A stretch of DNA of 64,000 nt, taken from NCBI GenBank assembly GCA_050084515.1, contig CM114271.1, forward strand, positions 23,250,001-23,314,000, given 5' to 3'. The stretch comes from Blasia pusilla. Lineage: Eukaryota. A program made the position numbers and the translations under genes. The notes beneath the pieces were generated by a model. The model did no database searches. It saw only the letters and a program-made list of their open reading frames with translations, and was not told the origin of the DNA. Shown piece by piece: positions 4,596 through 55,617 of this stretch (positions are counted from its first letter, which is position 1; the number at the start of each line of letters is the position of its first letter).

Positions 4596-5540
4596 GAGGG
4601 TGTTAGGGTGTTAGATCTCTTCGGAGGGATTAGCACCGGATTGGCGGCCATATTGCAGGCGAGCATACGGGTGCATAGTACCTTTTGTGGAGAGAGATGA
4701 GACTGCGGCGAGTATCACTACGTCACGTGGCGAGATTGGTCAGTAGGTATCCTAAGTTGTTGTCGGTATCTGCAGCACGGGGATACCAACATACGCTACC
4801 CGCCAACATATCTTTGGTGGGGGCGCAGGATCTGGATAGAGTTGGCACCATTCATTTGGTGATTCTTTGGATGGCCATGTCGGGTCATTCATCGGTTGGC
4901 CGAGGATTTGGATTGCGAGGATCCGAGGTCGGGGATGTTTTGGGAGATCTTTGCAAGTAGTACGACACTTGCGGAAGAGTCGATATGTTCTCCAAAGATA
5001 CATTTTGGAGAACGTGCCGTTGTTGGGAGATACTCGTGCACGTGTGATGACGAGTGTACATCGTGAGTCCTGGTTGGGACTGCTTTGTGTTGTTAGATGC
5101 GGCGAGAGTTGGGTCACGTGCCCATCGTCCCACGATTGTGGTGGGCGAACCGATACCATCGAGGTACCGAGTCGAGCCTACGGTGGAGTCCAGAGAGCAC
5201 CACATCTCACAGTGGATGCTATTTTGGACTCAGGGCGTCGATCTCAGGTGGTGACACGCGATGATAGACCAACGTTGGCCACGGCCAATAGGGTGGGGGA
5301 GTTGAGGGCAGCCTTACCTACGTTGATGAGCTTCCCAGCATCCCATGCCTTTCGTCAGGGAGGTCCACGCATGATTTGGGATGAAGTGACCGGAGTATTG
5401 GAGGAGCCTACAGCAGATGAGCGTGAGCGCGCCATGGGGTTCACTACTAGTACTACGGCGGTGTCAAGGATGACTGAGGCATCACGGAGACTGGTGTTGG
5501 GGCAGGCGATGGACCTCAATTGTCTCACATGGATATTCAG
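4596..5540 (+). pseudogene. DNMT3-like C5 cytosine methyltransferase domain of copy 1 (frameshifted)
   Basis: Motifs across frames: VRVLDLFGGISTG (I), GWPC at 4869-4880 (IV), YILENVP (VI), GSRAHRP (VIII), ERERAMGF (IX), LGQAMD (X). Confidence 0.9.
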
Positions 5541-6803
5541 CCTAGGTATGGCTGAGCAGAGACGGATGCGAGTGTCATCCATGCCGTCACGTCCACGAGT
5601 TGGACCACGCCATGTGGTGCATGACCGGCATTGGGGGCGAGACGAGGAGAGATAGGCACCCATGGACTTCCTGGGACGTCGTTTGAGCAGAGAGTGCGAA
5701 GGCGGCTAGAGTAGCACATGTTCATTTTTCGGATGTGGAGCATGGTATAGGAGGTCAGAGTGGAGTGGTTGTGGCGGAAGTGGCTAGGGTTGCTACATAG
5801 CAACCAAAGCCGGAGGTTGCGTCCTCTCCGAGTGAGGTCACGATGGAGACTTGGGAGCGTGTGATAGGTCTCAAGTTGACAGGAGGAGAGCGACGGCGAG
5901 TTCATAGGTTTCTGAGAGGGCATGTCAGTTGTTTTGCCTTCAGTATGAGAGACTTGGGTACGCTGAAGGGTCCCGGGATACGGATTGAGTTGGCTAGTGA
6001 TACGCCGATCTTTCGTCGACCCTACAGGTATTCTGATATGGAACGAACCTTGATTCATAGCAGGAGTCAGGACTTGTTGGAGGCAGGACTTGTGGAGTTA
6101 TCACATGGGGAGTATGCATGTGCCACAATCATGCTGGCAAAGAAGGATATGTATGGCAATTGGACGGATAGACGGATGTGTGGAGATTACCGTCCTATCA
6201 ATCGACAGACGAGGTCAGATCAGTATGCCATGCCTACTCCTGAGGAGATCTTTGATGCGGTAGGGCATGCAAAGATCTTCAGTACTTTAGATCTCCGTGT
6301 TGGCTATCATCAGCTTCCTATCAGGTTGGAGGACTGGGAGAAACGACGATGCGGGGATAGATCGGTTCGGGAGAGATTGCTTGTATCGATGGCGGTTCTT
6401 ACCATTTGGGTTGAAGAACGCGCTGCGGAGTTTCAGTGAGTGATGGATAGGATTCGGCTGGCTTGGATTTTTGTGCGATGTTACATAGATGATATTCTTA
6501 TCTTGATTCCACGGTTGAGGAGCATGAGCGACACTTGGAGGAGGTGTTTGGCGATTGCGTTACATGGACTGAAGTTACATCGAAAAAGTGCAGATTCTTT
6601 GAAATGCATTGAGTACTTGGGACACACCATATACCCAAGTGGGTTAGGCGTTCAAAGATCTGAAGGTAGAGGCATTGCAGATTCCACGCCCTACAGATGT
6701 GAGTCGAGTCCGAGCATTTTTTGGACTGGCGAACTTCTATCGACTGTATGTCAAGGGTTTTAGTGCGATCGCAAAGTCTTTGACCTTGTTGACGAGACTT
6801 GAT

Positions 6804-7211
6804 TATTGGATTCTCAACATCCACTCCTCTGAGCACCATTGATTTGATCGGCCCCCTTGTATGAGGAGAAGCCTAGATCGATGGTTCCAACTTAGACGTC
6901 GAAGGAGTCATAGTAATATGACGTAGGTGGTTTACGGAGTAGCGTTACTAGGTTTATCTAACCCTATATTGCATCAGAGTGCGGCAATTTTTTCTATTAA
7001 TAGAAACGAAGAAAAATAGGTTAAAACCCTAGTTTTCCCGAGTAGTCAAATAGTCGGGAGCCGCAGCGGTAGCGCATTCTCGTATGTCGAGTTATCTCCC
7101 AATTCAGGTTCCATCGAAGCTCTTCTGTGAGCGCACGGACGGACTAGGCCACTTTGTATCTCTAAGTTTTGTAAAGATTTAAGTGATTTCGTCACTTTCT
7201 GTTTTCTCACA
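6804..7211 (+). mobile_element. Solo LTR (copia-type) inserted between RT and RNase H of copy 1
   Basis: T(A)TTGGATTCTC...TCTCACA flanked by 5-bp TSD TTGAT (6799-6803 and 7212-7216). Homologous copies at 33214-33614 and 62853-62972 read TGTTGG at that end. Confidence 0.9.
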
Positions 7212-7251
7212 TTGATCAGGTGTGGTTGTGGGGAGATGATCAGGAGCAAGC

Positions 7252-7417
7252 ATTTCAGGAGCTCAAGGACATGTTGACGTCCTCACCCATTTTACAGAGA
7301 CCGGTTAGGGGTCGCCCATTCCAGTTACATACGGATTTCAGGAGCTCAAGGACAGGTTGACGTCCTCACCCATTTTACAGAGACCGGTTAGGGGTCGCCC
7401 ATTCCAGTTACATACAT
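7252..7417 (+). repeat. 83-bp tandem duplication inside pol of copy 1
   Basis: ATTTCAGGAGCTCAAGGAC...CCAGTTACATAC occurs at 7252 and again at 7335. Confidence 0.9.
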
Positions 7418-8149
7418 TGGAGCATGTTGGGTCTAGGAGCAGTGCTTACTCAGAGGGATGACAAGGAGAGGGAGTTCGTTGTGGCTTACGCGAGCCGATC
7501 GAACAACATTGCAGAGGCGAAGTACAGCTTCTACGAGGGAGAGTGCTTGGCTGTAGTGTGGGCCGTGGCACATTTTAGGTGCTATTTATTTGGCAACCCT
7601 TTCACACTTATCACTAATCATCAGCCATTGAGGTGGTTGATGGAGTCCGACAAGCTTACGGGAAAGCTTGCCAGGTGGGCTCTATTACTACAGGAGTATG
7701 AGTTTGAGGTGGTTCATAGGCCAGGTCGGATGAACCAGGATGCGGATGGGTTGAGTCATAACCCATGTCCGAGTCAGAGAGACGACACAGGAGCTCGATG
7801 GCACGGAGAGAATGATGAGGAGATGGTGCCCGTTTGGCATGCATCTACCTATCTTTGTTGGTTGACTATGGCAGGTTAGCCAGAGGTGATGACTCCAGTG
7901 GTGGGGTTGGATGATGAGTCTTTGGATCCGGAGGTCAGTGAGGAGGCGACAGGTGGTTGTGATATCCATGACGACGTGGAGGTTGTGGAGTTCTTGCGCA
8001 CTGGCGTCATAGCGAGCACAGTGAGTGCTAGGGAGCGGGACGGATCCTACAAAGAGCCAAGAGGTTCAGGTGGGAGGGGACTCACATTTTGCGGGTATGG
8101 GGAGATGGTAGGATACGAGTGGTACCTCATCCTTCCCAGCAAGCACGTG

Positions 8150-8874
8150 TAGTGCGACATGCCCATGAGGAGTTGGGACATTTCGGAGTAAAGCGCATTT
8201 TGACTTTTACTCCAGGTTCGTGATTGGTGGCGCGGCATGCATCTTTGGGTACAGCAATTTGTGGCCACATGTATGGTATGTGACAGTGACGAGCATCCTT
8301 CAATGAAGGTTTATTGAAGCATCCTTCAATGATCCCACTGAAGGATTACATCCTTTGCACCCTAAACGATTATGGGTTTAGGTTATCGGTGGAGTTTAGA
8401 CTTTGCGGGACCTTTGCCATTGACAGGGCGTCATCATAGGTACGTGTGGGTCATGGTGGAGCATTTCTCCAAGTGGATAGAGTTGGTGGCACTACCAGAT
8501 AAGGCGAGCGAGGGAACAGCTTATGCAGGCGGCACCCACGACGCTAGATGTCACTGAAAGGCGCACGATCCTACGTGTGCACGAGGTATTACCGACCGGA
8601 GTCCTCATGTTGGAGGGACGGGATGGTATGGTTTGGAAGGATCATTTGCGCAATTGTGCGCCATGTCATCTTCCGAACGTAGATGGGACGGTGGATCCGA
8701 GCTTGGCAGTGGTACCTGCCAGCTGGCTTGAGGTGTATGTTGTGCGGATCTGCGAGGGGTGGAGCCACCATGTTGGTATGTGATGGTTGTTCTCGAGGGT
8801 GGCATATGTCATGTCTGACCCCCCCTCTTGATGTGGTTCCCACGGGACGATGGATGTGTCCGAGATGTGTATAG
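8150..8874 (+). pseudogene. Integrase (core deleted) with C-terminal PHD finger, copy 1
   Basis: HEELGHFG...WW.GM...C..C and SLDFAGP. Relative to copy 2, about 0.5 kb is missing at ~8525. Intact C4HC3 PHD CMLC...CDGC...WH..C...PP...W.CPRC at 8734-8868. Confidence 0.9.
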
Positions 8875-9088
8875 GGTAGTAGGTCATGTCAGAGAGATGT
8901 GATATTTTCTATCTGGAGTTAGGGGGATCCAACTGTCAGCTAGGGGGGCGGTTGTGTGATCTCCATGTATATGTATGAGTTAATTTTTGTACATGTGTGG
9001 ATCAACCCGTGTGTGGGGAAGATTGGTGTTGTGTGGTGTAGATGTGACGAGCGATGTATGTTGTGTAGCGATATGTATGCGCACGACA

Positions 9089-16873: not shown

Positions 16874-16879
16874 TAGTAT

Positions 16880-34800: not shown

Positions 34801-35059
34801 TATATAATTAAAAGAGGATGGGGTTAGAGAAAACCTTTCGTGATGTTGACACCTATCCTCCGAGGGTTCTTCTGGTGTTGAAAATTTTCAATTTAAGAGA
34901 GGGACTTAAGTTAAGAGGAGACAATTAAATTAAACTAGGAAAGGAAAGGAGGACCAGAGGTGCTAAATTGGATTTTTTTTAATTTGAAGATCACCGGTGC
35001 ATAGCACGCCCGTGCTACCTCTAGTTGCCCGTGCTAAACCCTCCATGAACTCTCTACCC

Positions 35060-37139
35060 TCATCCAACATGATGATGAGGGTAGAGAGTTCATGGAGGCT
35101 TACGCTAATCGCTAAAAAAATGTTGCAAAGGTGAGGTACAAGTTGTATGAGGATGAGTTCTTGGTTGCAATGTATGCTACTAGGCATTTAAGAGGTTACC
35201 TATTCGAAAATCACTTTACCATCATTATTGATCCAAAAATCTTACATAAAAGCTTGCTAGGTGGGCTCCGTTGTTGCAGGAGTATAATTTCCAAGTGGTA
35301 CATCAATCTAGGATGCTCAATAAGGATGCACATGGATTTAATGAGTTGAGTTGTAATTTATACATGAATCAACATGATAAAATTGGAGCTCGTTGGCATG
35401 GATAGAGTGATGAGAAGATGATTCTGATTGGTACGTATTAGCCTATTTGGGTTTGTTGGCTATAGAGAAGCCAAAGTGTTAAGACCTCAATGACGAGGTC
35501 CAATTGAGAGTCATTGGATGCAAAGGATAATGAGGAGGCCAAATATGGTGGAGATATCCATGATATTGGTTGCAAGCACAATGGATTCCAGAGAGTGGGA
35601 TCAGATCTTATAGTGAGCCAAATGGTTTCGGTGAGAGGGATCACATGTTTTGGGAGGATGGTAGAGTGCAAGTAGTCACTAGTGCTTCATCCTTCACAAA
35701 GAGCACGATTGGTACAACTTGCCCATGAGGAGTTGGGACACTTTAGAGTGAAGCGAACGTAAAACTTACTCCATATACAATAGCACTCGCGAGTCACGCA
35801 GACTAACGTCCAATAATTTGTTGCTAAATACATGGTGTGTGACCGAATCCAAACACAATTCAATGCTCCGACTCAATACTAGCATCAACTATCTATCAAG
35901 CACGTCTCAAAGTGAATAGAGTTGGTTGCATTGCTTGAAAAAGTGAGTGAGGAAGTAATGCATGGTCTAGATTGAGTCACTATGGTGCATCAGATGAGGT
36001 GTTGATGGACTAGGGTATATAGTTTTGCAAAAAGTTTTAGGCCTTATGTGATCATGTACTAATCAACCACTACAGTACTTTGTGAGATCATCATGAGGTA
36101 GATGGATTGACAAAGAGAGTTGTTTAGACATTGAAGAGGGATTTGCCCAAGTATGGCTTGTAGAGAGATTAGCTACGAGATTGGGATCTACAATTTTCGT
36201 GGTTAGTAATGGGATACTGAATCCACAAGCAAGCATCCTTCTCACCTTACTTGATGTCTTTATGGTTGAGAGCTTGATTTACCTATGGCAATTCATTGTG
36301 ATGTTGGTAGGTTTTGAACCTCGATGACCTTGATATATCGATGCAAGCATGCTCTCAAAGGGCTAAGTTGCTTTATTGCTAATTTGCAGCAATAGCCAAG
36401 TTCCACCACCCTTTTGCACATCAATCACATACTAGCATAGTGGTTGCATCTCAAGTAGATCCACACTATATGAAACGTAAGACTTGGGTCGATGGATTTT
36501 CCCAGATCTTCATAGAGAAGGTATTATATAGGTAGTCATAGATCTAGACTTAAGTTAGTGATATGGATGATAAGAAAATGACTAACGATGGGACTACATG
36601 AGCACACAACCTTTTTGCTCTTAGCGTCCTAGAGATGTGTGTCATGATAAGTAGGGAAAGATGATTTTTAGAAGTTAGAGGGACCTAAACATCAACTAAA
36701 AGGGTGATTGGAGATATTTTGGTAAATGATGGTCTAAGTATTCAGATGCTATGAGTGAGTATGATATCATGTGTGCATATGCTTGTAGTTAATAACAATA
36801 ATGTACTATATCGATGTTTGTGCACATAATAACTATGACGTTCTTTGAGGATCGATCAATGAGTATTTGTAGGGGCCTTTAAGAAGAGTGGAGGTCAACC
36901 TCAAGAAGTTAAAGATGACTTGTGGATGCCTTAGGTAACCTAAGAGAAGGTTCCCCCTTTGTTTTGGTTCATTTTGAGTTATATTTAGAAACTTACTAAT
37001 ACAAGTAAATTCCCATTAGAAGAATAGTTGACTTAAAATTTTGGGAAGTGGTCCTTGACTCCTACAACAAGTCAAGAGCCAATGAGATAACCGACAAGAA
37101 CAAGTTAAAGTGGAGAGAGCTTGGGAGAGGGAAGGGGTA

Positions 37140-37184
<45 letters not shown>

Positions 37185-37492
37185 TGGAGCTCATTCTTTT
37201 TTTTTTGAACCTCTTGGCATGAGTCAATTGAGCTATCGGCCTTCTTACCTTGTGAGTAACCCAAGCCTATCATTAGGAGAGTGGGTTTGGTTTAGAGAGT
37301 GAATTTGGTTTGACATGAAAGAGAGATGGAGATTGTGCAAGAGATTGGAGTACTTTTGATTTAAATGGAGATATTTTGGTATAAAATCGTCTCAGTCTTG
37401 ATCAGACATGAGTGAGTATAGTATCTTATGTGTATCTACTTGTAGTTAGTGACAACGATATATGTTGTATAGTGATGTGTGTGTATATGACA
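35060..37492 (+). mobile_element. Old decayed 3' half of the DNMT-gypsy family: RNase H, integrase and B-A-B tail
   Basis: Nucleotide homology to copy 2 from 52328 onward; B 36707-36831, A 36834-~37363, B ~37364-37492 ending TATGACA. Confidence 0.85.
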
Positions 37493-39250: not shown

Positions 39251-39944
39251 TTTTGTGCGTATACACATCGCTACACAACATATATTGTTGTCACTTATCA
39301 ACACACACAAATGCTAGCCTAATTCAATCATCTATCAAATATGATCATGGAGGCAAGTTGTCATCAAAATATCTCCAATATAATAGATGAAAAATCTCAA
39401 ACAACACAAAAAGAGCTCCATGGCTCTCATGCACATTGTCTTTTTCTCTCTTGTTAAACCAAACCCATTCTCATGGTGAGAGGATGGGGTTACTCACAAG
39501 GCAAGAAGCACCATAACTGCGCCGCCTCATACTCAAGAGGTTCAACAAGGAGAGTATGAGCTCTCCAAGCTCACTCTCCTTGAGATATACCTCTCTCCCC
39601 AAGTCCTCCTCACAATCTTCCTCAAAGTCTTTCCCAAAGTCCTCAATTCCGTCCTTTTCAAGGTCTTCTTCACAGTGCACCAAATTCACCAATTGACCTA
39701 AAACCTACAATAGTGGATCAAGAGCTACCTCCCGTAAATAGAAATTTAAAGCTCATATAATTGGGAAACTTACTTGAAATAGTAAATTACTCATATGACC
39801 TCCAAATAGATTTACACAAAGAGGAAACCTATTATAGTACGTTATCCTACTCCCTAGCAAGTCATCCATGACCTTTTGGACTCCGCCTCTAATCTCTACC
39901 AAAGCATCCCACAAAAACTTCGTTCCACTGTAAAAGACGTGACA
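39251..39944 (-). mobile_element. Solo A+B terminal unit of the DNMT-gypsy family
   Basis: The minus strand starts TGTCACGTCTTTTA (39944) and ends in the B segment (ATTGGAGATATTTTG...GTAGCGATGTGTATACGCAC). Confidence 0.85.
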
Positions 39945-40646
39945 CACAAAATTTAAATAAATACGTTTTACTAACATCGGCCCTCTATAAATACGAGTAA
40001 ATTATAATTTTTCCCCATCCTAAATTTGCTCTAATTTGGCTTCTTACTCCACTAAGCCCCACAAATCTTGTGTCAACTCTCATCAAATAAACTTTTAACC
40101 TAATGGCCTCCAAATAACAAGTTTTCCTAGAGTATCCATAAAAAAATAAAAAGTTTATTTTACTTTTCTACATTTCTCCTAAAGAGTTACCCAAAAAATT
40201 CAAAATTGCTCATTCTCATGCTGACTATGGTAACCCTTGCGAACAAATATAAATTTACACTCAAGCATCAAAATCCATTATTTTTTTTACAGTGTTCATA
40301 ACATCTTGATCTGAAATGGTACTTAAATTCTATTAAAAAAGGTTTAGCACTTTTTTGCGTTTCTCTTTTGCTCGAAAAATCCACACAAAATATACACAAC
40401 TAGGTAGCTCTTGCTCTCGTGAACATTCTTGTGAACCATTGAATGGGGAACATTGTCCCCATTTTGAAAATTAGCAAACACCCAACAAGCTCTTGCAGTT
40501 TAGAGCTCTCATTCCATCATTCTCTCTTTGTAAGTCAAAAGCACTCCAATATCTCACACAACCCCCATCTCGTTCTCATGTCAAGCCAAACCCAATTTCT
40601 TAATAAGAGGCTTTGATTACTCACAAAGCAAGTAAGACCATAACTC

Positions 40647-40648
<2 letters not shown>
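39945..40648 (-). mobile_element. Older 5' portion of the DNMT-gypsy family: end of A joined directly to the leader
   Basis: 40518-40536 reads CTTACAAAGAGAGAATG on the minus strand, matching the A/leader junction at 46402-46419; 40441-40470 matches 46464-46496. Confidence 0.7.
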
Positions 40649-40851
<203 letters not shown>

Positions 40852-43800: not shown

Positions 43801-45864
43801 TGTAGAGGCTATGTCGAGTCATTGCCGACTCACAAAGTTTGAAGGGATGGTGAATAACTTCATCATCATCGAGCGCAAATTTCGGGAGGAGAAAACAGAA
43901 CCTGAACGGCATTCGATGATTCTTCGAGACGGAGGACACAGAGTTCCCACAGGTGTTGCTTCATCTTTCATTGTTCAGATAAAGTGCTCCATCATCATCA
44001 TGTACTATACTGAGTCGGACTCGGAAATGAAGAAAGAGACTGCACTCGAGTAGCGCTGCCTTCCGCAGGCTCGAGATCATGGATCTTGTGGAAAGGGTGG
44101 GCGGTGCTAGTGGCTTGGAATCTTGGATAGGTCTCGGAAGAGGCCAGAGTGGAGCTCTACATGGGGAGACTTTCCCGCGAAGTCCTGGCTAGGAAGCTCG
44201 TTCTCCCAGGAAAAATGGGCCTTTCCTGGGTGAAATCACCATCCATGATCCTACGGCTCTTCACCGGAAGGAAAATAGCCCTTTCCTGAAATACATCGTC
44301 ACTATTGCTTAGCTACCAGACTACCAGCCACCTGTGGACATTGCGTTAGTATTTGAGGAAGGGGGGCGTTATTCCGATGGGAAGAACCTTCCAGTTGGAT
44401 TATCTCGTTTCTAAAATGAAACCAAATCAACTATTAATAGTTCACATCAAATCCTACGAAACCAAGTTAAGATATAAGATCAGTTCTAGAAACTCTAATT
44501 TCGTTCGATGCCTCATGCATCGCTCAAACGTTCTACTGGTTAAATGTAGGCACCTGTACTTGGAGAATACATTCTACTAGTTAAACAAGGCGACTATTCC
44601 TGGAGAGCAATCGTCTTCTTCTGAGAACTGAGTGCACGTGACCAGGCTTTCAGTTCAACACCATCCGGAGCATCCAGATTCCACTACAAGGCTTTGATGA
44701 AGTCCCTGACTCCCTATGCTTTCTCCTCTTCTTCTTGTTCTTTTTCTGGAGAGAGAGACGGCGAAATTTTGGAGTCCTTTATTGCTCTTTCTGTTGCAAG
44801 TTCCATAGTAGCCATTTCGTGACTGAAAGTTCCATCCTCACGGACGAAGTATCGATAATTTGTGTCCGCATTCTGCTGCCCTCGTGATTCGAGGAAAACG
44901 CCGTCCGTTGAACTTGAATGTTGTTTCTAACCTGAGAATTTCCACCTGTTTCTCGAGGGCTGCCGGTAAGAGATCTGGGAATATCTAGGATGCAGCGTAG
45001 AGAAACATCTGATTTTCTTAGTGCTTCACCGTTGTGGTGTTGATGTGAGAGTTCTCACACAAAATGTCTGACAATGTCTTAGACTACTTTTCCTGGAGCT
45101 GCCTCTGCCACCTCTAATTGGTCATGTAAGATTTATATCCATATAGTCTCCGAACCGAATTCAGATCTACCAACCTAAGTGGTAAGAGGCGATTCTCACA
45201 TGGCTCATCAAACGTCTTTCAGCCTGACTTCCTTGAGTCTATTCTCCTAGACTCTATTTATGTCCATTGGAGAAATGAAATGGAGTTTCGGAGGGAAAAA
45301 ACGAGGAGGAGGTTTTGCTTGTAGTGCTCTTGTCTATTCGATCTTAGATTCAATTTATTCCTCTTTTTCGTACTTGAATTTTGAAGTTTTCCAAAGTTCT
45401 TGGGATATGTAGACCTCCTTCTCTCATTAATATTCTTGAAGATTCTTAAACAAAATTTCGCACGGTGCAATTCCGAGTTACAATCGCTTTTTGCGATCTT
45501 TTGTTGTTGGCTAGGCCTTACATTATAACCTCATCCCTTCATATGAGTCATCGGTGGATGGCTTTCACTTTCTCCTCACAAGCTCTTCCTTTGGTGTTTT
45601 CAATTTCCTTTGGAATTTTCTCATGGAACATCGCTTTTGGTGTGTTTGGTCTGGTTTCGATTGTCATGACAAATTTTTTTATCTTCATACCAAGTGGATT
45701 TCCTACTTTTTCTTCCCTCTCTTAAGGCACCTATTTTTGGTTGCGGGTTTGTTTTAGGTGAATTCCTCTCATATGTCTTCCTTGCTCTTTCAACACTTCA
45801 CCTTACTGCTTCGCCCCTCCCTACTTTTGCTATCTCTATAAGATCCTTATAAATTAATTTTCTT

Positions 45865-46406
45865 TGTCACGTCTTTTAGGATAGATCGGTGGGATCTAAT
45901 AGAGCGCCTTCATGAGTAATGGAGGACACGCCCAGTAGGTCGAGGGTGACCTGTTGAGGCCCTTGGAAACCTGAGATAGTAGGTTTCCCCTTCGTTTCGG
46001 CTCATTTGGAGCCATATTGAAGAACTTACTATTTTAGGTAAGTACCATTTTGAATATATGATCGACTTACTATTTTTGGTAAGTGGCCCTTGACCTCCTA
46101 CCTTGACGCGTCTCGGTTTCACCTCACTAACTGCGTCAAGAGCCAAGGAGGTGACTTGGGAGAATAGGTTACCATGGAGAGAGCTTGGGAGAGGGGAGGG
46201 GTATACCTCAAGGAGAGAGAGCTTGAGAATTCATTCTCTCTTTGTTGAACCTCTTGGCATGAGGCGGCGGAGCTATGGTACCTTGCCTTGTGAGTGTAAC
46301 CCAAGCCTCTCATTAGGAGAGAGGGTTTGGTTTGACATGAGAGAGAGTGCACACCTTTGAGAGCTATGGTGTGAGATGGTGTAGAGAGAGATTGGATCTT
46401 ACTTTA
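45865..46406 (+). repeat. Terminal repeat A1
   Basis: Direct repeat of 54511-55037, with scattered substitutions and a ~30-bp indel; followed by the leader, not by B. Confidence 0.95.
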
Positions 46407-47567
46407 CAAAGAGAGAATGAGAGAGTGAGAGAGCGTCATGGGGGAGCTCGCTGGTCACTCGCTGTTTTTGCAGGTTGGGGACCGTGTTCCCCGTTCAGAG
46501 GCTCATGGGAGTGCTCATCGGAGCAAGGGCTGCTTTGATTATTCTTTGCATTTGCTGATTTTTCATGTGGAAGAGTGGCGCGCGGAAGCGTTGCCCAATT
46601 GTTGATAGGGATTGAGTATGGGGGCGGGTTGCCCCATGCTGATTTGTATTTTTACAGATGTTATATTTTCGTTGGGAGAAATCAGTGCGGGAGCGTTGTC
46701 GAATTTTGTGTAGGAGAAAGAGACATTGGGCTTTACGACAGTCCCCGTTAGTTTTTACTGAAATGTCCGATTCTAAATATTTTTTGATGCTGGTGTAGAT
46801 CGTGAAGCTGTGCACGTTGTGCAACAAACAATGCGCAATTTGGAGCTGCGAGCAAAAAGTTATGGTCAATCTTGTAAAGTTGCAATTGCTAGGCGATTTT
46901 TAGGGTTAAATTGTGCAAACCCTAAATCAGCCGCCACACCGGCGGCGGCCGTCGCCATCATAGTCACCGTCAACGGTCAACCATCAACCTTCACCTTCGA
47001 TGGTCAACCATCACCGTCAGCGTCAACCGTCACTGTCAACGGTCCACCGCCCATTGTCCACCCTTTGGGTGCCATTGCCGTCATTACGGAGTGGAGGGTC
47101 TTCCACGACGTTCGTTGAGTCCTTAACTTGCGTCGCCACCATGTACTTTGTTTTGGCCGCCACCGTCATCGCAGTTTCTTCATCAATCAGTGGTGGCAGA
47201 TGACCTCCGGTTATGGTGTTTGAGTTTTGATTTCATGTTGCTATGTTGTGATTGGTAGCCGCTCGACGACGATCGAGTATCGTGCCGTGACGCCCGTAGT
47301 CGCAACGCGCCGCCGATTGCCGCGCCGTGCCGCTCGTGGCCGCACCGCACCGTCTCGATCGCGGAGCCGCACCGTCATTGTGGAGCAGAGTGTGGGTTTA
47401 TTGTTGATTGAGGAGAGTATGCCGCCGAGTGCCGCATCCCATCATCGAGGGCCGTGCCGTTCGTAGCCGTTCCGTGCCGCCTACAACGCCGCACCGTTCC
47501 ACTGGGACCGCATTGTCTATCGAAGAGTTTTGAGCAGCGTCAGTACGGGAGGAGTATGACTTGCTGA

Positions 47568-48740
47568 TTGGAGGAGTTTTCTACTAGTGACGTTTTAGGA
47601 GGGATCACTCGCACGGGAGCAGTTGCACCGTCTAGTCGGGTTCGTCCCGGGTTCAACCGTGTGGTTGAGTTCTTTGCTGAGTTGAGGGCGAGCTACCAGG
47701 GGTTACGGACGGGGAAGTTGCGGAGCATCCATGACTTCCAGAGGCGTCCGGGTGAGAGTTTGCGTGAGGCTTACACTCACTTGCGCCGGTTGATCAACGT
47801 CACTTAGGGGGTGACAGAGGCTCAGGCTATCCAGTCATGGTACGCGATGTTGGACCGGACCCTGCGGACACGGGTGCGGGAGGGGTTGCTTCTTATGAAC
47901 ACCTCCCCTACGTTGAGAGATGTTTTTAGGACCGCCGAGAACATTGAGCGCAACATGGCGGAGGAGAGCGTAGCCACCATGGGTTCTCGGGCGAGAGCGA
48001 TCCACGATTTATCCGCACCACCTATGCAAAGCAACGTGGACTCGAGATAGGTCGGCGTGGCACCACGAGCTCGGGGAGGATACCGGGGAGGCCGTGCCAC
48101 GAGACTGCGCCTTCATATGCGGCTCGGCCAGCGGCCGCCTACTATTACTTGTTGGTCATTGGTGAAGCCCATCATCAACACGATTGCACTCGTCAAGGTC
48201 ATGGGCGTGTGCCTCAAAGATGGAGGAGGAGATGGTGCTTTGCACCAGGGAGGTTATCTGTGTGACTATTGTCGAGGTATGGTCATACACGCCGGAGGTG
48301 TTTTAGTTTACATCCTGAGTTACGTCCGGACCGAGGGCCAGAGAGGGCACCAGATCGAGTAGCCGGTCCGGGTGGGCCTAGAGATCGTGCACCCCTGTTG
48401 GGAGACGAGGAGCTGGAGTTGCCGAACAGGGTGGTGGAGCTGCCCGTGGAGGAGGTAGAGTACCACCACCTAGACGCGCCGAGGGAGACGCCGGACGTGA
48501 GGCTGGGATGATCTTTGAGATATAGCGACTCTGGGGAGCAGATTGCCGCTATGGCATTGAGGTTACCCGATGCCGGATCCGTGACATCGACATCATATGG
48601 AGCATCCAGAGATTTGGAGGATCCTGGATGGATGTGCGGGGTTGCCCAGATGGAGGCCGCCGAAGTTGTGACGCGTGGAGCAGCCGCAGAGTTGGATCCA
48701 CAGCGAGGGGAAGCCAGAAGACAGACTAGGCTTCCTTAGT
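47568..48740 (+). pseudogene. gag of copy 2
   Basis: FQRRPGESLREAY (retrotransposon gag motif); degenerate CCHC knuckles at ~48149 and ~48260. Confidence 0.8.
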
Positions 48741-49053
48741 CTTTCACGTTGTCCGAAGCGATGAGGACCCCATCGATGGGTCCTCATCAAAGTTCGTGGA
48801 GAGTTGGTGATGTTGTTGGTGTGCAGACACGAAGGGCGATGGGAAAAGCGAGTGCGACGACTCTATTGTTGATGCTCATGAGGGGCATGTGTCGAGCATG
48901 ACGTTGGGGGGTACGCCCGCCGAGGCTTTTCGGCTGGCCGCTTCACTATGTGAGCGCGGAGTTGGATTTCTGCATCACGTTCAGAAGTGATGGCAGAGGA
49001 GGTGATGGACCTGCCCTTGGAGCGGATGCTAGGGCCGCCGCCCACGCCGATTC

Positions 49054-51117
49054 ATGGTAGGTCATGCGGTCGCTAGGATGGCGGAGATGCCCGCTAGATC
49101 CGCGATAGAGCGTGCCATGGCTTCTCCTGGTGTTGTGTTGTTGGATAACCGAGGAGAGGTCTTCCAGTTGGTGAGTCCTGGAGGTAGAGCTTTTAGTCCG
49201 CAGCGCGTCTTGTTGGATTCACGAGCACAACCCTTGATGTTGGGGAAAGCGTCATTTAGAGGATTGGGCTTGACGAGAGCCGATGTGGAACGTTGTCCAT
49301 TCCGGATCCAGACATCCTTGGGTGGAGCGAGTACCACACAGTATATCACCCGACAAGAGGTCATGGTGAGGATTCTCCCGGGACATCCTACAGATGAGTC
49401 CGTGGTGCGCGCCAAGGCGATAGTGACTGATGTTGAGTCCTACGACGTCTTGGTTGGTGGAGCAGTGTTATATCCGATGGGGTTTTCCTGGATTCTTGGG
49501 AGGAGTCGGCCCTATAGACCAGGATGGCAGTCAGGTGATGGGCGCCTTAGCTCATTACCCGTTCGATTCACAGGTGCAGTGATCGAGCAACGGCCAGGAG
49601 AGATGGCGACCTTAGCAGCATTTAGCAATGCCATCACTTGGCCTAGTGATTTGATTGAGGGACATGTCCATGCAGAGGATAATCCCGTTCCTGACATTTC
49701 TATGGAGAGGAGTGTTATGGGAGCTGCATCATTCCGTGGAGGAGAGGTGCCGCTGTGGGGCTCGACTGAGGAGCTCCAACGATTGGCAGATGAGCACGTG
49801 CAGATCGCGTGGAGCGAGGCGTTTGCACCAGAGCGTGACGGGTCTGAGGAACCCGAGGTAGCAGGGAGTGCTACGATGACACCCTTGGATACCACACCCA
49901 TTGTGTGGTGTACCCCGGAGGAGGGTATTCGAGTGTTAGATCTCTTTGGAGGGATTAGCACCGGGTTAGCTGTTTTGCAGGCAAGAGTGCGAGTACAGCA
50001 ATACCTGTATGTGGAGAGTGATGATGTTGCGAGGCGCGTCTCACTACGACATGTGGCGCAATTACGCCTACGTTTTCCCGACTTATTGTCTGCGTCCGCA
50101 GTACAGGGGTACCAGAGTTCCCTACCGAGGGATATTTTGTTGTTGGGGGCGCAGGACTTAGAGCGGGTAGGGACCATTGATTTGGTCATTTTCGGTTGGC
50201 CATGTCAGGGCCAATCGAGTGTAGGACGAGGCAGCGGGTTGGCTGACACTCGGTCCAGGTTGTTTTGGGAGATGTTGAGGGTCTTACGGCAGTTGCAGGA
50301 GCACCAGTCTCGTTCTCTAGCCTACATTCTGGAGAATGTGCCGATCTTAGGAGACTCCATGTCACGGGTCGTGACAAGTGCTCATCAGGTGCGTGCCCGG
50401 ATCGGCCCAGCAGTGTTCTTGGATGCGGCGAGTGTAGGTTCTAGAGCCCATCGCCCGCGTCTATGGTGGACCAACTTGGTGCCCCATGCGGTGTTATGGA
50501 GGGCGTATGCGAGAGTGGAGCGCCCCTCCCCTTTGTTAGTGGATTCCATTCTCGATCCAGATCGTCGATCACAGGCAGTGAGGCACGATGATCGACCACC
50601 GCTGACTGTGGTCAATAGGGTAGGCAGGCCGCGGGCAGCCTTGTCCATGTTTGTGAGTTTTCCCGCTTCCTATGCATACAAGGAGACCGGTCCTGGCTTG
50701 GTTTGGGATGACGAGGTTCAGCGGTTGGTGGAGCCCAACGCCGACGAGAGAGAGCGAGCGATGGGATTTTCCACAGGAGTGACGGCAGTACCATCAGTGT
50801 CAGAGGCATCACGACGCCATGTCTTGGGTCGGGCGATGGACCTGAATTGCTTGACATGGATCCTCAGCTTGGGAGTGGCTGAGCAGCGTCGTATGAGATC
50901 GCGACATATCACAGCGGTTGCGTTGGTGAGCCCCATGCCTACCGAGATGGTGGAGGTGTGGGGGGCGAGGCGAGACCGAGGAGATCTACGCACTAGGGGA
51001 GATCGGGAGAGACACCCTTGGACTTCTTGGGATGTTTTGAAGGTACGCAAGGAGATGATAGCCACACCATCAAGCGTGGTTTCGGGCACTGCACGTGGAG
51101 GAGATCAGAGTTTGTAG
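49054..51117 (+). CDS. pol segment: aspartic protease fused in frame to a DNMT3-like C5 cytosine methyltransferase (MTase ~49921-50870)
   Basis: LLDSRAQP at 49216 (DSG in copy 1); RVLDLFGGISTG, YVESD, DLVIFGWPCQGQS (PC at 50200-50205), YILENV (50332-50340), RAHRPRLWWTNL, ERERAMGF, SRRHVLGRAMD, all in one open frame. Confidence 0.93.
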   Translation: MVGHAVARMAEMPARSAIERAMASPGVVLLDNRGEVFQLVSPGGRAFSPQRVLLDSRAQPLMLGKASFRGLGLTRADVERCPFRIQTSLGGASTTQYITRQEVMVRILPGHPTDESVVRAKAIVTDVESYDVLVGGAVLYPMGFSWILGRSRPYRPGWQSGDGRLSSLPVRFTGAVIEQRPGEMATLAAFSNAITWPSDLIEGHVHAEDNPVPDISMERSVMGAASFRGGEVPLWGSTEELQRLADEHVQIAWSEAFAPERDGSEEPEVAGSATMTPLDTTPIVWCTPEEGIRVLDLFGGISTGLAVLQARVRVQQYLYVESDDVARRVSLRHVAQLRLRFPDLLSASAVQGYQSSLPRDILLLGAQDLERVGTIDLVIFGWPCQGQSSVGRGSGLADTRSRLFWEMLRVLRQLQEHQSRSLAYILENVPILGDSMSRVVTSAHQVRARIGPAVFLDAASVGSRAHRPRLWWTNLVPHAVLWRAYARVERPSPLLVDSILDPDRRSQAVRHDDRPPLTVVNRVGRPRAALSMFVSFPASYAYKETGPGLVWDDEVQRLVEPNADERERAMGFSTGVTAVPSVSEASRRHVLGRAMDLNCLTWILSLGVAEQRRMRSRHITAVALVSPMPTEMVEVWGARRDRGDLRTRGDRERHPWTSWDVLKVRKEMIATPSSVVSGTARGGDQSL

Positions 51118-51213
51118 TTGGCTGCAAGAGAGCGGCCGAGTGTTGTTGTTCGAGACGGGGTTGCACCATAGCAACCACCGATACCCGCGCCGGAGAGTCC
51201 TACCGTAGTCACG

Positions 51214-52709
51214 ATGGAGACTTGGGAGCCAAATATGGGCCCTAAGTTGACAGGAGGAGAGTGGCGCCGAATACATCAGTTCCTCAAGAGTTATAGGAGC
51301 TGCTTTGCGTTTAGCATGGAGGATTTGGGTACGCTGAAGGGACCGGGGATCCGCATTGAGTTGTCGAGTGATATGCCGATCTTCCGGCGACCCTACAGTG
51401 CTGATGATATGGAGAGGGCTCTGATTCAGAGTAGGAGCCATGACTTGGTCGGAGCAAGACTAGTGGAGATGTCGCATGGGGAGTATGCATCTGCCATTGT
51501 CATGCCCGCCAAGAAGGATGTGCATGGCAACTGGACGGATAGGCGGATGTGTTGGGATTACCCACCTATCAATCGGCAGACGAAGTCCGATAGGTATGCC
51601 ATGCCCACCCCTGAGGAGATCTTTGATGCGATTGGTCACGCAAAGGTCTTTAGTTCATTGGATTTGCGAGCCGGATACCATCAACTACCTATCATTGGAG
51701 GACAGGCAGAAGACGGCATTTTGGGGCATCGATCCTCACGGGAAGGATTGTTTGTACCAGTGGCGGTTCTTACCATTTGGATTAAAGAACGCCCCGGCTG
51801 AGTTTCAGAGGGTCATGGATAGGATCTTGGCTAGTCTGGATTTTGCTAGGTGTTATATTGATGACATCGTAGTCTTTAGCGCCACGGTTGAGGAGCATGA
51901 GCAACATCTAGAGGAGGTGTTTCGACGATTGCAATTACATGGGCTGAAGCTACATCTAGGCAAGTGCAAGTTCTTCTACGACCAGATTGAGTACTTGGGT
52001 CATTCGATATACCCAGGGGGCCTTGGTGTTCAACAGACGAAGGTAGAGGCTATCTCACGCATTCCACATCCTACAGATGTGAGCCGTGTTCGCGCATTCA
52101 TGGGATTGGCGAACTTCTATCGGCGATACGTCAAGGGATTGATTCGATTATGGCCACTGACCTTGGTGACCAAGGTGGATCACGAGTGGCACCTTTGGGG
52201 ATGAGTAGGAGCGAGCATTTCATTGCTCAGGACAAGTTGGCGTCGCACCCATCTTGAGGAGACCGATCGGGCGTCCTTTCGATTGCACCGATTGGAGCAT
52301 GTTGGGGCTTGGAGCGGTGCTCACCCATCATGATGATGAGGGTAGAGAGTTCGTGGTGGCTTACGCTAGCCGCTCAAACAACGCTGCAGAGGCGAAGTAC
52401 AACTCGTTTGAGGGTGAGTGCTTGGCTGCGGTGTGGGCTGTCGCGCATTTCAGATGTTACTTATTCGGAAACCCCTTTACCATCATCACTGATCATCAAC
52501 CACTAAAGTGGTTGATGGAGTCCGACAAGCTTACAGGGAAGCTTGCGAGATGGGCTCTGTTGTTGCAGGAGTATGATTTTCAGGTGGTACATAGACCTGG
52601 GACGCTCAACCAGGATGCAGATGGGTTGAGTCATAACCCATGCCCGAGTCAGCGAGATGCAATTGGAGCTCGATGGCATGGAGAGAGTGATGAGGAGTCG
52701 GTGCCATGA
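51214..52709 (+). pseudogene. RT and RNase H of copy 2 (frameshifted)
   Basis: FSSLDLRAGYHQ, PFGLKNAP, CYIDD (51851-51865), YLGH; TDWS..GLGAVL, ECLA, TDHQPL, ADGLS. Confidence 0.95.
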
Positions 52710-52733
52710 TGGCACGCGTCAGCCTATTTAGGC

Positions 52734-54201
52734 ATGTTGGCTATGGAGAGCCAGAGTGTGGAGACTTCGATGGCAAGGTCTAGTGGAGAGTCCTTGGATC
52801 CCGAGGCCAGTGAGGACACGACAAGTGGCCGAGATATTCATGATGATGGAGTAGTCTTAGAGTACCTTCGTACTGGCAGCCTTGCGAGCACCATGGATGC
52901 TAGAGAGCGGGATCGGATCCTACAGCGGGCCATACGGTTCCGTTGGGAGGGGACAAATGTTTTGAGAGTTTGGGAGGATGGCAGAGTACGCGTAGTGCCG
53001 CATCCTTCACAGAGAGCACGACTAGTGCAGCCTGCCCACGAGGAGTTGGGTCACTTTGGAGTGAAGCGGACGTATAGCTTGCTCTAGATTCAGTATTGGT
53101 GGCGAGGCATGCAGACTGACGTTCAGCAGTTTGTTGCCAGGTGCATGGTGTGATCGGGTCCGAGCATCGTTCAATGCTCCGACTCTACAGTTGCATCCAT
53201 TATAGATCATGGGCTTAGGGTATAGATGGAGTTTGGATTTTGCAGGACCTTTGCCCTTGACGGAGCGTCACAGTCGTTATGTGTTGGTGATGGTCGAGCA
53301 CTTCTCGAAGTGGATCGAGTTGGTTGCATTTCCTAACAAAGCGAGTGAGGGAGTAGCTTATGCCTTCCTTGACAGAGTGTTGAGTCATTATGGCGCACCG
53401 GATGAGGTGTTGACAAACCACGGTACCGAGTTTCGCGGTGAGTTCCAGGCCTTGTGTGATCAGGCGCTGATCAACCACCGTACGACTTCGCGAGATCATC
53501 CTGAGGCGGATGGATTAGCGGAGAGAGTTGTGTAGACAGTGAAGAGGGATTTACGCAAGTATGGCTTGCAGAGAGGTCACCTAGGAGATCACCGTACTTG
53601 CTACTTTATGGCCGAGAGCCAGATTTACCTGCGGCCATTCGTCGAGATGCTGGTGAGGTACTGAACCTTGATGACCCAGATGTATGGGTGCGAGCATGTT
53701 CTCAGAGGGCTGAGTTATTTCGGAGAGTGATGCCCATGGCGTTCGAGAACTTGGCGATTGCACAAGATCGGGATACGTTGAGGTATGCGACTATTCGAGG
53801 TGGTGGTTATCGACCAACTATCCGGAGGTTTCATCAGGAGATTATGTCTACTTGCGGACAGACGGCACCGCAGCGTTGGAATGATCTGCAGGCGCACTAT
53901 CCTGAGAGTGCGTGACATTTTGCCATCGGGTGTTCTCTTGCTGGAGGGACGCGATGGTATGGTATGGAAGGACCATGTGCGTAATTGTGCGCCATGTCAC
54001 CTTCCTAACATTGATGGTATAGTAGATCCGAGCTTAGCAGTAGTTCCTGCAGGCTTGCGTTGTATGTTGTGTGGTTCTGCCCGTGGTGCGGCCACGATGC
54101 TAGTCTATGATGGGTGTTTGAGAGGATGGCATATGGCATGTTTGACGCCACCTCTCACTAGGGTTCCTCAGGGACGATGGATGTGTCCCAGATGTACATA
54201 G
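52734..54201 (+). pseudogene. DDE integrase with C-terminal PHD finger (54061-54195), copy 2
   Basis: HEELGH...CMVC zinc finger; SLDFAGP; LTNHGTEF (second Asp mutated to Asn); GLAERVV; PHD with one Cys-to-Tyr change. Confidence 0.93.
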
Positions 54202-54369
54202 AGAAGGTAGTTCTACATTCCGACTTGTGTCTGTGACATGGATGACAAGGAGGCGACTAACGATGGGGCCACATGAGCACCCGGCCTTCTTGCTCTAGCG
54301 TCCGAGAGATGTATGTCATGGTAGGTAGGGATAGATGGCTATCTGGAGTTAGAGGGACCTAACCACCAA

Positions 54370-54380
54370 CTAGGGGGGCG
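54370..54380 (+). promoter_or_regulatory. Polypurine tract
   Basis: CTAGGGGGGCG, identical in copy 1 (8940-8950), directly before segment B. Confidence 0.75.
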
Positions 54381-55164
54381 ATTGGAGATATTTTGGTACG
54401 TCTTGTCTCGTTGTTTGGATGCCATGAGTTAGCATGGGATCATGCGTGTTTGTGTGTGTGTTAGGTGACAGCGATGTATATTGTGTAACGATGTGTATGC
54501 GCACGACAGTTGTCACGTCTTTTAGGATAGATCGGTGGGATCTAATAGAACGCCTTCATGAGTAGTGGAGGACACGCCCAGTATGTCAAGGGTGACGTGC
54601 TGAGGCCCTTGGAAACCTGAGATAGCAGGTTTCCCCTTCGTTTCGGCTCATTTGGAGCCATATTGAGGAACTTACTATTTTAGGTAAGTACCATTTTGCA
54701 TATATGATCGACTTACTATTTTTGGTAAGTGGCCCTTGACCTCCTACATCAGGTCAAGAGCCAAGAAGGTGACTTGGGAGAATAGGTTACCATGGAGAGA
54801 GCTTGGGAGAGGGGAGGGGTATACCTCAAGGAGAGAGAGATTGAGAGCTCATTCTCTCTTTGTTGAACCTCTTGGCATGAGGCGGTGGCATGAGGCGGCG
54901 GAGCTATGGTACCTTTCCTTGTGAGTGTAACCCAAGCCTCTCATTAGGAGAGTGGGTTTGGTTTGACATGAGAGAGAGTGCACACCTTTGAGAGCTATGG
55001 TGTGAGATGGTGTAGAGAGAGATTGGATCTTACTTTATTGGAGATATTTTGGTACTGCTTGTCTCGTTGTTTGGATGCCATGAGTTAGCATGGGATCATG
55101 CGTGTTTGTGTGTGTGTTCGGTGACAACGATGTATGTTGTGTAGCGATGTGTATGCGCACGACA
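54381..55164 (+). repeat. 3' terminal block B1 (54381-54508) - GT - A2 (54511-55037) - B2 (55037-55164)
   Basis: B1 and B2 are 128-bp direct repeats ATTGGAGATATTTTGG...GCGCACGACA; A2 repeats A1. Confidence 0.95.
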
Positions 55165-55617
55165 TCTTAAGCCACTTCTTTTGATACCATATAGGCTACT
55201 TCTACTTTTAAATTGCTTTCTATAGTTCCTAAAATGACTTTCAATCATAAATTTATCTTGAATTATCTTATTCTCTCCATCTTAATCTATTTTGGATGGA
55301 TTCCACTACTTTTATTGTAGTCGTTATCCTAAAATTCCCACAAAATTATAATTCATGTCTTCTCTTGTTTTGAATAACATATCTACTTTTAGTTCCATGG
55401 ATATGGAGTTGGATAATCCATCTACTCACTTATTTGGTTTTACATGTCTTCCTTCAATCGTAACCTTTTCCCATGGTTCTCCTCCTTATCTTCCATCTTT
55501 TCTATCCTTATCCCCTTTATTCCTCCTTCCCCAACCTACTTACCCCCTCATAGTTGTATATCATCATCTCAAGCACCTTCCATCTCTTCTCCTCATAATC
55601 CTTCTACTTTTACATCT

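Follow-up and report, generated by a model that had tools for sequence, protein, structure and literature searches.

Retroviruses and long terminal repeat (LTR) retrotransposons integrate, in the textbook account, a linear cDNA by its tips, and circular forms of this cDNA are regarded as dead ends. Elements of the PAT/Ngaro/Kangaroo type (DIRS order), which integrate without a target-site duplication (TSD), carry split direct repeats in the order A1-int-B1A2-B2 (int, internal part), implying that the cDNA ends are joined before or during integration. Here, we analyze an element at positions 45861-55168 of a 64,000-nucleotide stretch of Blasia pusilla DNA (contig CM114271.1, positions 23,250,001 to 23,314,000, forward strand; hereafter, the window, at full length) that shares this split arrangement with the DIRS order, but whose family differs from it in having a DDE integrase, no match to a tyrosine recombinase, TG..CA ends, and a 4-bp TSD. 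The element is an old, frame-broken member of a Ty3/gypsy retrotransposon family with very many copies, and its integrated form is best read as a circularly permuted cDNA.

The same order of repeats has been described before in a methyltransferase-bearing element. KnitGypsy-Dnmt3 of Klebsormidium nitens combines Gypsy domains with DIRS-like repeats in the order A-coding-B-A-B (de Mendoza et al. 2018, PMC5890265, Fig. 4c legend), and a ‘Gypsy-DNMT3’ of streptophytes is named in a 2026 preprint (bioRxiv 10.64898/2026.05.21.726589). Compared by published description, the Blasia element is like KnitGypsy-Dnmt3 in its Gypsy pol, in a C5 cytosine DNA methyltransferase (DNMT) inside the polyprotein, and in the A-coding-B-A-B order, whereas its best DNMT matches are from Calypogeia, Marchantia, and Sphagnum; by domains and repeat order as described, it matches the group called Gypsy-DNMT3. 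The layout is already in print in that 2018 legend. A literature search by element names (KnitGypsy, Gypsy-DNMT3) returned only these two sources, and the passages of them that concern the elements contain no replication or integration mechanism and no analysis of TSDs, primer-binding site (PBS), polypurine tract (PPT), or joints. Similarly, the passages found under element names or split direct repeats gave no mechanism for a split-repeat layout in a DDE element. As far as these passages go, the Blasia element is a further member of a group whose layout has already been noted and whose mechanism is unexplained in print.

Tf1-type elements carry a chromodomain and no DNMT, and their LTRs form conventional pairs, the tips of which serve as integrase ends. 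Elements of the Tf1/sushi type are recognized by the first ~11 nt of the RNA being complementary to a PBS that abuts the 5′ repeat. The Blasia family resembles Tf1/sushi (plant Tcn1) elements in that the sequence immediately following the 5′ repeat can pair with the RNA 5′ end (14–17 nt here, the start being predicted), but it differs from Tf1-type elements in its PHD finger at the chromodomain’s place, its DNMT, and its split repeats. Self-priming has been predicted for the plant Tcn1 clade (Neumann et al. 2019, PMC6317226). The integrases of prototype foamy virus (PFV) and human immunodeficiency virus 1 (HIV-1) cleave the CA..TG palindromic LTR–LTR junction of 2-LTR circles (PMC1180852, PMC1905944, PMC4372172), and a DDE integrase would likewise cut an internal CA..TG in circular DNA here, regenerating competent ends. 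In retroviruses, cleavage falls on the junction at which the two tips have been ligated, and the reaction is a side path, whereas the Blasia family keeps the tip-to-tip joint in the genome (junction J2, below), has its putative cut site elsewhere in the LTR (junction J1), and would use the route obligatorily.

Split repeats and target-site duplications across the family

From left to right, the element consists of A1, an internal part, the PPT, B1, the dinucleotide GT, A2, and B2 (Table 1), beginning with TGTC at 45865, ending with GACA at 55164, and having TCTT outside both. The repeat finder aligned A1 and A2 in three blocks of 238, 136, and 152 nt at 96, 96, and 99% identity, respectively (89.6% over 555 columns with gaps counted), and B1 and B2 over 128 nt at 95%. 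The complete LTR, B-NN-A, where NN is a dinucleotide, occurs once in copies of the form A...B-NN-A-B, internally; no complete LTR pair is found at the two ends. The repeat finder and the sequence itself confirmed every coordinate given for an A-internal-B-A-B layout in the first-pass annotation, and the TGTC...GACA ends, the TCTT duplication, and the GACA-GT-TGTC junction were all at the positions it had assigned to them.

We scanned metagenome contigs with an alignment of the DNMT domain, obtained 293 relatives, and kept the best 80. Self-comparison was run on the 44 loci of at least 6 kb, and A and B probes were run on all 80, of which 42 gave matches; four locus pairs with identical flanks or coordinates were merged before counting. 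The relatives comprise two well-sampled families (L047-like and L050-like) and a third lineage, L033. On the 3′ side, 14 of 23 distinct ends show B1 continuing into A: B2 is visible in 11 (the main window copy, window copy 2, L014, L026, L047, L050, L054, L059, L060=L063, L061, and L073), and the record ends or breaks within A2 in three (L004, L035, and L033). At the remaining nine (window copy 1, L016, L020, L027, L029, L030, L037, L041, and L080), the internal part and B are followed by flank. On the 5′ side, all 26 distinct ends (24 in loci and two in the window) read flank and then TGTC, with B upstream of A1 in none. Thus, the window copies and metagenome contigs classified in this way include no ordinary LTR pairs.

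Perfect 4-bp TSDs flank seven of the 10 elements with both ends visible (TCTT, CCTT, AAGG, GGTC, CCAA, CCAC, and TACA), the chance of such a match being 1/256 per element; among the other three, L030 and L020 match at three of four positions, and L054 shows no match. As anticipated, the duplications stand outside TGTC/GACA. The A-int-B form, which had also been predicted, exists with TSDs in window copy 1 (CCTT) and L029 (TACA), whereas the predicted mirror form, A-B-A-int-B, is absent from all 26 distinct 5′ ends. B is always the shorter arm, at 105–180 nt against 290–540 nt or more for A. The split-repeat layout is a trait of the family, seen in at least three diverged lineages, and A-int-B-A-B is its standard layout; the idea that it records an event peculiar to the window locus was not borne out. 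In L059 (14926-14955), the B2 end has a 15-nt tandem duplication of the terminal CTACACGTCACGACA, and the TSD CCAA follows the second copy.

Two DNA contig sets (X1 and X3) and two raw RNA runs (X22 and X23) with the same species label were mapped onto the element. Summed depth over the element ranges from 10^4 to 3 × 10^5, against ~50 in the left flank bin and ~900 in the right flank bin (X1), as expected of a family with a very large number of copies. Coverage of the A and B2 bins exceeds that of the internal part several-fold, suggesting that solo A-B units are numerous. Among the contigs listed for X1 and X3, none spans the whole stretch, so that they speak neither for nor against the window locus itself, and most A1-to-A2 joints reflect switching between the two A copies.

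Reverse-transcription signals and the two LTR junctions

That the LTR defined by reverse transcriptase (RT) is B+NN+A is well supported by sequence features on both sides of the internal part. A G-run adjoins B1 in the window, in L033, and in the L047 and L050 families, and B2 starts at exactly the same base; because the G-run abuts B1, the start of B would be the start of U3. A putative PBS abuts the end of A1, which would make the end of A the end of U5. This PBS is the perfect complement of a segment located ~30 nt after a TATA-like box inside A of the main window copy, an arrangement that looks like Tf1-type self-priming. Perfect complements extend over 15 nt in the main copy, 14 nt in window copy 1, 17 nt in L047, and 15 nt in the L050 family (six loci), lengths reached by 0 of 500 shuffles. 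In copy 1, for instance, 510-523 pairs with 335-348 (14 nt), after CTATATAAG, and seven of the 14 positions differ from the main copy, all of them compensated. Altogether, four PBS/5′-end pairs from four lineages differ in sequence yet remain complementary. Folds predicted for the start-to-PBS RNA pair the two segments in both the minimum free energy and the centroid structures in three lineages (z-scores −3.45, −3.95, and −2.72). In decayed loci, the complement is shorter or absent, and eight of the 24 tested 5′ regions are no better than chance.

TATA boxes are found 25–35 nt upstream of the predicted start in the L047 and L050 families, and AATAA(A/G) lies ~40 nt downstream of it in the L050 family, which would place R and the RNA 3′ end inside A. 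The TATA box, the predicted start, and AATAAA are all located inside A. An LTR of the form B+A starting right after the PPT, as the first-pass annotation had it, thus agrees with the PPT abutting B1 and with a self-priming PBS that co-varies in four lineages. The positions of the PPT (adjoining B1), the PBS (adjoining A1), and the TSD (beyond B2) rule out an LTR consisting of A alone or of A+B. Likewise, a tRNA-type PBS was rejected, as the bases after A1 do not begin with TGG, and a TGGT ~47 nt downstream of A1 was ruled out as a PBS, as A2 is not followed by those 46 nt.

The two junctions of the B-A-B block differ in character. J1 (B1|A2) places the right integrase end and the left integrase end back to back, with a spacer of 2 nt (GT, GC, or AC) in all 12 readable junctions; in the third lineage, L033, the order is PPT-B-GACA GT TGTCACG-A. 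J2 (A2|B2) joins the U5 end to the U3 start exactly in the main window copy, L014, L026, L050, L059, and L060, with one substitution in L047 and L054, and with one extra nucleotide, A, in L073. Less regular joints occur as well: in L039, ~9 nt of PBS plus filler separate A from B; in L061, which has a perfect TSD (CCAC), only the final 29 nt of B follow an intact U5 end, 148 nt having been lost; and each DNA run includes one contig in which A plus 8 nt of PBS is joined to B. The A/B joints had been predicted to vary, and they do (+1 nt, PBS remnants, and 148-nt resection). A spectrum of this kind is expected from the end joining of cDNA tips in retroviral 2-LTR circles. That A2|B2 derives from joined cDNA tips is well supported, and the likeness of the joint variants to end joining speaks for J2 being newly formed in every transposition instead of inherited from the parent; RNA should not contain B2 in any case.

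RNA first mates map mostly to the minus strand, with a depth of 8–170 against 0–10.5 on the plus strand, which means plus-sense RNA of the family if the library was stranded in the usual way. RNA reads cover the leader, the internal part, B1, and A2, and their depth drops to 18–25 in the last bin (A2 tail, B2, and flank). Both RNA and DNA reads that cross the PPT at 54381 continue into a different B variant, GTTGTGGTACAC, which is the B of the L047-like metagenome family; the transcribed host subfamily would thus differ from the window copy in U3.

A candidate route from cDNA to integrated copy

For genomic copies of this kind to derive from the cDNA, its tips must be joined and the integrase must act at an internal position. 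Our best explanation, to which we give even chances, is a circle with joined tips that is cut at J1 next to the PBS and inserted by the DDE integrase. In general terms, this pathway can be rationalized into three stages. (i) Reverse transcription: transcription would start inside A, ~30 nt after the TATA box, and end inside A2; the first ~15 nt of the RNA would fold back onto the 15 nt abutting A1 and prime the minus strand in a Tf1-like manner, and the G-rich PPT abutting B1 would prime the plus strand. The product would be a cDNA with ordinary B-NN-A LTRs, in which U3 comprises B, NN, and the first two-thirds of A, and R-U5 is the remainder of A. (ii) Tip joining: the integrase would ignore the cDNA tips, because its recognition ends, TGTC... 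and ...GACA, would stand back to back at CA-NN-TG (J1) inside the LTR, and the tips would be joined to each other to give J2, most likely via host end joining into a 2-LTR circle. (iii) Cleavage and insertion: both strands would be cut after CA at the J1 of the PBS-side LTR, yielding a linear A-int-B-NN-A|B molecule with recessed CA-3′OH ends and 2-nt 5′ overhangs, which the DDE integrase would insert with a 4-bp duplication. Processed retroviral ends normally look like this, with a recessed CA-3′OH and a 2-nt 5′ overhang. Three origins can be considered for A-int-B copies, namely 1-LTR circles, cleavage of both J1 sites, and a B × B deletion at a later time; without a 3′ R, such copies would be unable to make transferable cDNA. 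The layout, the ends, the TSDs, the PPT and the co-varying PBS, J2 with its variants, and sense RNA of the family are direct observations; the circle and the cleavage step are plausible, and the enzyme cutting J1, the geometry of the cut, and the reason why one J1 site only is used are inferred.

The first-pass annotation had proposed cleavage of a 2-LTR circle at the CA-GT-TG site, a model that stands in part. Its joined tips are well supported (J2 is a U5 end on a U3 start), and A-int-B copies with TSDs and variable joints are found; its symmetric version fails on the mirror form. A symmetric 2-LTR circle predicts the two forms at equal frequency; the 14 3′ ends at which B1 continues into A (11 with B2 in view) show one of them to be common, and the absence of the other from the 26 distinct 5′ ends implies that the integrase does not choose freely between the two J1 sites of such a circle. 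The symmetric model is incomplete and lacks a directional step. Candidates for it are a cut in the linear cDNA close to its shorter arm (B), with end joining afterwards; a template jump by RT on one strand only, which would create J2; and a cDNA still incompletely double-stranded at the time of integrase action. On a broader reading, a lineage of DDE-integrase LTR retrotransposons would have moved its integrase ends from the cDNA tips to one internal CA-NN-TG, so that tip joining is obligatory, the joint is carried into the genome, and a directional step favors the PBS-side site; we hold this reading tentatively, at somewhat under even chances.

Two of the directional steps can be elaborated into rival pathways. 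If the integrase cut J1 in the left LTR of linear cDNA, and inserted the large TGTC fragment together with the small GACA fragment of B, host end joining could make J2 after integration, without any free circle. Product, TSD, and J2 spectrum would be those expected from the circle, and, because B is always the shorter arm, the left J1 would be nearer the DNA tip, which could explain both single-site use and the missing mirror form (0 of 26). However, the chromosome break would have to be held until repair, and we know of no integrase that operates in this way; on present data, the two routes give indistinguishable copies, and we consider the linear one unlikely. Alternatively, J2 could be the work of RT itself, the plus strand jumping end-to-end onto the left U3 tip or onto a released B fragment and copying B as far as J1, which would yield A-int-B-NN-A|B either directly or in the form of a nicked circle. 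The exactness of most joints and the single extra A in L073 are the usual signature of RT template jumps, the PBS-containing joints (L039 and the DNA contigs) fit a plus strand that had copied the primer first, and a strand-specific step would account for the missing mirror form. Against this, the loss of 148 nt of U3 in L061 better fits resection and ligation, and integrase cleavage at J1 is still required; we regard the jump as distinctly unlikely.

Two further explanations fare worse. An ordinary LTR element (AB...AB or BA...BA) might have been rearranged after insertion by deletion, unequal crossing-over, nested insertion, or misassembly, and the window copy is indeed old (judged by the gapped A1/A2 identity), has broken frames, and has rearranged relatives nearby. 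Yet the same order, with the PPT at B1 and the PBS at A1, recurs in independent contigs of at least three lineages and in two further copies of the window, B is found at none of the 26 5′ ends, and the TSDs flank A1...B2 and no sub-part of it. In particular, A2-B2 as a separate second insertion is ruled out, since the bases before A2 (CAGT) and after B2 (TCTT) differ and no TSD surrounds the pair. We consider such rearrangement very improbable. Split direct repeats of the form A1-int-B1A2B2 are, in turn, described as a hallmark of DIRS/PAT/Ngaro-type elements (PMC4157794; PMC5890265, Fig. 1e legend), in which a circular cDNA would have been integrated by a tyrosine or host recombinase. We give this reading almost no credence: neither the window element nor L033 has a Pfam match to the tyrosine recombinase domain (PF00589, Phage_integrase), the HHCC and DD35E integrase motifs are intact in L033, the ends are TG..CA, and most TSDs are perfect. 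Moreover, seven further open frames of at least 120 aa in L033 (five on the minus strand) have no Pfam match of any kind, and L033 would thus encode no tyrosine recombinase. A DDE integrase in place of a tyrosine recombinase had been claimed from the start, and the rve domain found in the window copy bears this out.

Several observations weigh against the route through a joined-tips circle, or limit its support. Besides the missing mirror form, the PBS-containing joints could come from internally deleted elements instead, and A-int-B copies made by integration are indistinguishable here from those made by later B × B deletion. The metagenome loci behind the census counts may, even after merging, represent some genomic sites more than once. 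Most RNA reads share 90–95% identity with the window copy, with identities of at least 99% in only 17 of 4958 (X22) and 24 of 5246 (X23), and thus derive from relatives and not from the window copy; their placement between A1 and A2, and between B1 and B2, is ambiguous. An RNA start at 46231 or its A2 equivalent was not resolved by the reads, the listed begin and end places (46064, 54573, 54885, and others) being different, and no poly(A) loose ends were found among the rows listed, a test limited by reads from relatives and by the A1/A2 ambiguity.

If the broader reading above is right, the split-repeat layout of DIRS/PAT/Ngaro elements reflects replication by way of joined cDNA ends and not the tyrosine recombinase, and has been reached convergently with a retroviral-type integrase. 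To the layout given in the 2018 legend, our analysis adds the co-varying self-priming PBS, the exact U5/U3 joint and its variants, the conserved CA-NN-TG, the 4-bp TSDs, and the missing mirror form. Together, these define a concrete and testable pathway, and the family offers a natural system in which to examine whether a DDE integrase can use a circular or end-joined substrate. For annotation, split direct repeats alone are insufficient to class an element as DIRS-like, and tools based on LTR pairs will mis-call, mis-date, or miss the family.

Coding content and further copies in the window

Table 1. Features of the element at 45861-55168 and of related copies in the 64,000-nucleotide window.
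Feature	Positions	Strand	Remarks
Left TSD, TCTT	45861..45864	+	Identical four bases recur at 55165-55168
A1, 3′ two-thirds of the RT-defined LTR (rest of U3, R, U5)	45865..46406	+	Start TGTCACG is the putative integrase end; repeat of 54511-55037
TATA-like box, GGTATACC	46200..46207	+	Weak in window copy; TATATAA or TATAAAA at the same place in relatives; putative role
Predicted RNA 5′ end and self-primer source, TCATTCTCTCTTTGT	46231..46245	+	Perfect 15-nt reverse complement of 46406-46420
Putative self-priming PBS, ACAAAGAGAGAATGA	46406..46420	+	Abuts A1 end; pairs with 46231-46245
Conserved stem-loop in leader, GGGGACCGTGTTCCCC	46477..46492	+	Stem kept with different sequence in copy 1 (559-573)
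gag-like region, decayed	47568..48050	+	No Pfam match; placed by position only
694-aa open frame, protease-like part and C5 cytosine methyltransferase	49033..51117	+	DNMT homology ~49900-50952; PF00145, E 1.2e-9
RT, split over two frames	51172..52204	+	YIDD motif; PF00078, E 6e-24
Ty3/gypsy-type RNase H	52209..52709	+	PF17917, E 9e-34
Integrase (HHCC zinc domain and DDE core), frame-broken	52710..53915	+	PF17921, PF00665
PHD finger, C-terminal end of pol	54061..54195	+	PF00628, E 2.5e-9
PPT, AGGGGGGCG	54372..54380	+	Putative plus-strand primer; abuts B1
B1, 5′ part of U3 of the RT-defined LTR	54381..54508	+	Ends GCACGACA
J1, GACA-GT-TGTC (right end, 2-nt spacer, left end)	54505..54514	+	GACA 54505-08, GT 54509-10, TGTC 54511-14; proposed integrase site
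A2, second A copy	54511..55037	+	Repeat finder and sequence itself
J2, ACTTT(A)TTGGAG (U5 end joined directly to U3 start)	55032..55043	+	Circle-junction-type joint
B2, second B copy	55037..55164	+	Terminal GACA is the putative integrase end
Right TSD, TCTT	55165..55168	+	
Related copy 1, A'-int-B'	34..9088	+	~66-77% identity in internal part; TGTCAC...GACA ends
Related copy 2, 3′ part only, int-B-A-B	35059..37492	+	Ends GACA; strongly transition-decayed, ~70% identity
Related minus-strand fragments	39252..40647	-	Partial A, PBS, and leader (40647-40406), then A-B unit (39944-39252)

A Pfam scan of the plus strand of the element returned DNA_methylase, RVT_1, RT_RNaseH, Integrase_H2C2, rve, and PHD domains in broken frames (Table 1), and the second catalytic residue of the integrase reads N in the translated window copy. 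The relative L033 is near-intact, with a gag-protease-DNMT frame of 1369 aa (ORF1, open reading frame 1), which includes an aspartic protease, followed by one stop and then by an RT-RNase H-integrase-PHD frame of 1047 aa; its integrase has the HHCC motif and DD35E residues readable in translation. The pol order protease-RT-RNase H-integrase, with a gypsy-type RNase H and a DDE integrase, is that of Ty3/gypsy elements in the window copy, L033, and L050. Compared with solved structures, the pol of L033 is closest to the Ty3 Gag-Pol polyprotein (E 4e-98), and its best retroviral integrase match is PFV (E 2e-21). After the integrase, Pfam detected no chromodomain in the window copy or in L033 and L050, and the PHD finger occupies that position.

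The PF00145 methyltransferase is also carried by L033 ORF1 and by L050. For the DNMT part of the window copy, identity is 69% with a Calypogeia fissa protein and 54–68% with Marchantia polymorpha proteins, and Sphagnum proteins match it as well, which points to a bryophyte, probably a liverwort, as the host; among viral contigs, the only DNMT match, at 32% identity, is unrelated. Judging by these domain matches, the family carries a PHD finger downstream of the integrase and, between the protease and RT, a putative DNMT3-type cytosine methyltransferase.

Two places in pol differ between the window copy and the mapped reads. At 53589, many reads and contigs break in all four runs, with the same loose-end sequences on both sides; the window copy lacks a stretch within the integrase region that the rest of the family has, which fits the frame break seen at 53505-53535. 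At 51335-52394, reads in both RNA runs (5 and 15) join these two places and skip 1058 nt of RT. As the ends of the skipped segment are GA..GC, the junction is not an intron, and it suggests a transcribed deletion derivative of the family.

In the leader, ~70 nt after the PBS, three copies have a stem-loop (also on the minus strand near 40458-40443). Its stems are GGGGA..TCCCC or GGCAA..TTGCC and always follow TTTGCAGGT or a decayed version of it; the conserved structure may be a packaging or dimerization signal.

Among the related copies in the window, copy 1 has no terminal repeats at all; CCTT occurs at 30-33 and 9089-9092, its PPT lies at 8942-8950, and a tandem 81-nt duplication (83 nt start to start) occupies 7252-7415 within pol. 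The B-A-B block of copy 2 spans 36707-37492. In the minus-strand fragments, a long (TG)n microsatellite at 40650-40800 stands in place of the 5′ part of A, and ~460 nt of AT-rich sequence separate the A/PBS/leader fragment from the A-B unit. An isolated 1.1-kb RT fragment of the same family on the minus strand (15766-16874, 90% identity) is the nearest relative of the main copy in the window. A 14-mer at 15668-15681 that resembles the B end is a chance match in unrelated surrounding sequence. Finally, a GC-rich block (0.52–0.54) at 28000-32000, within AT-rich surroundings and without similarity to the element, may be another transposon.

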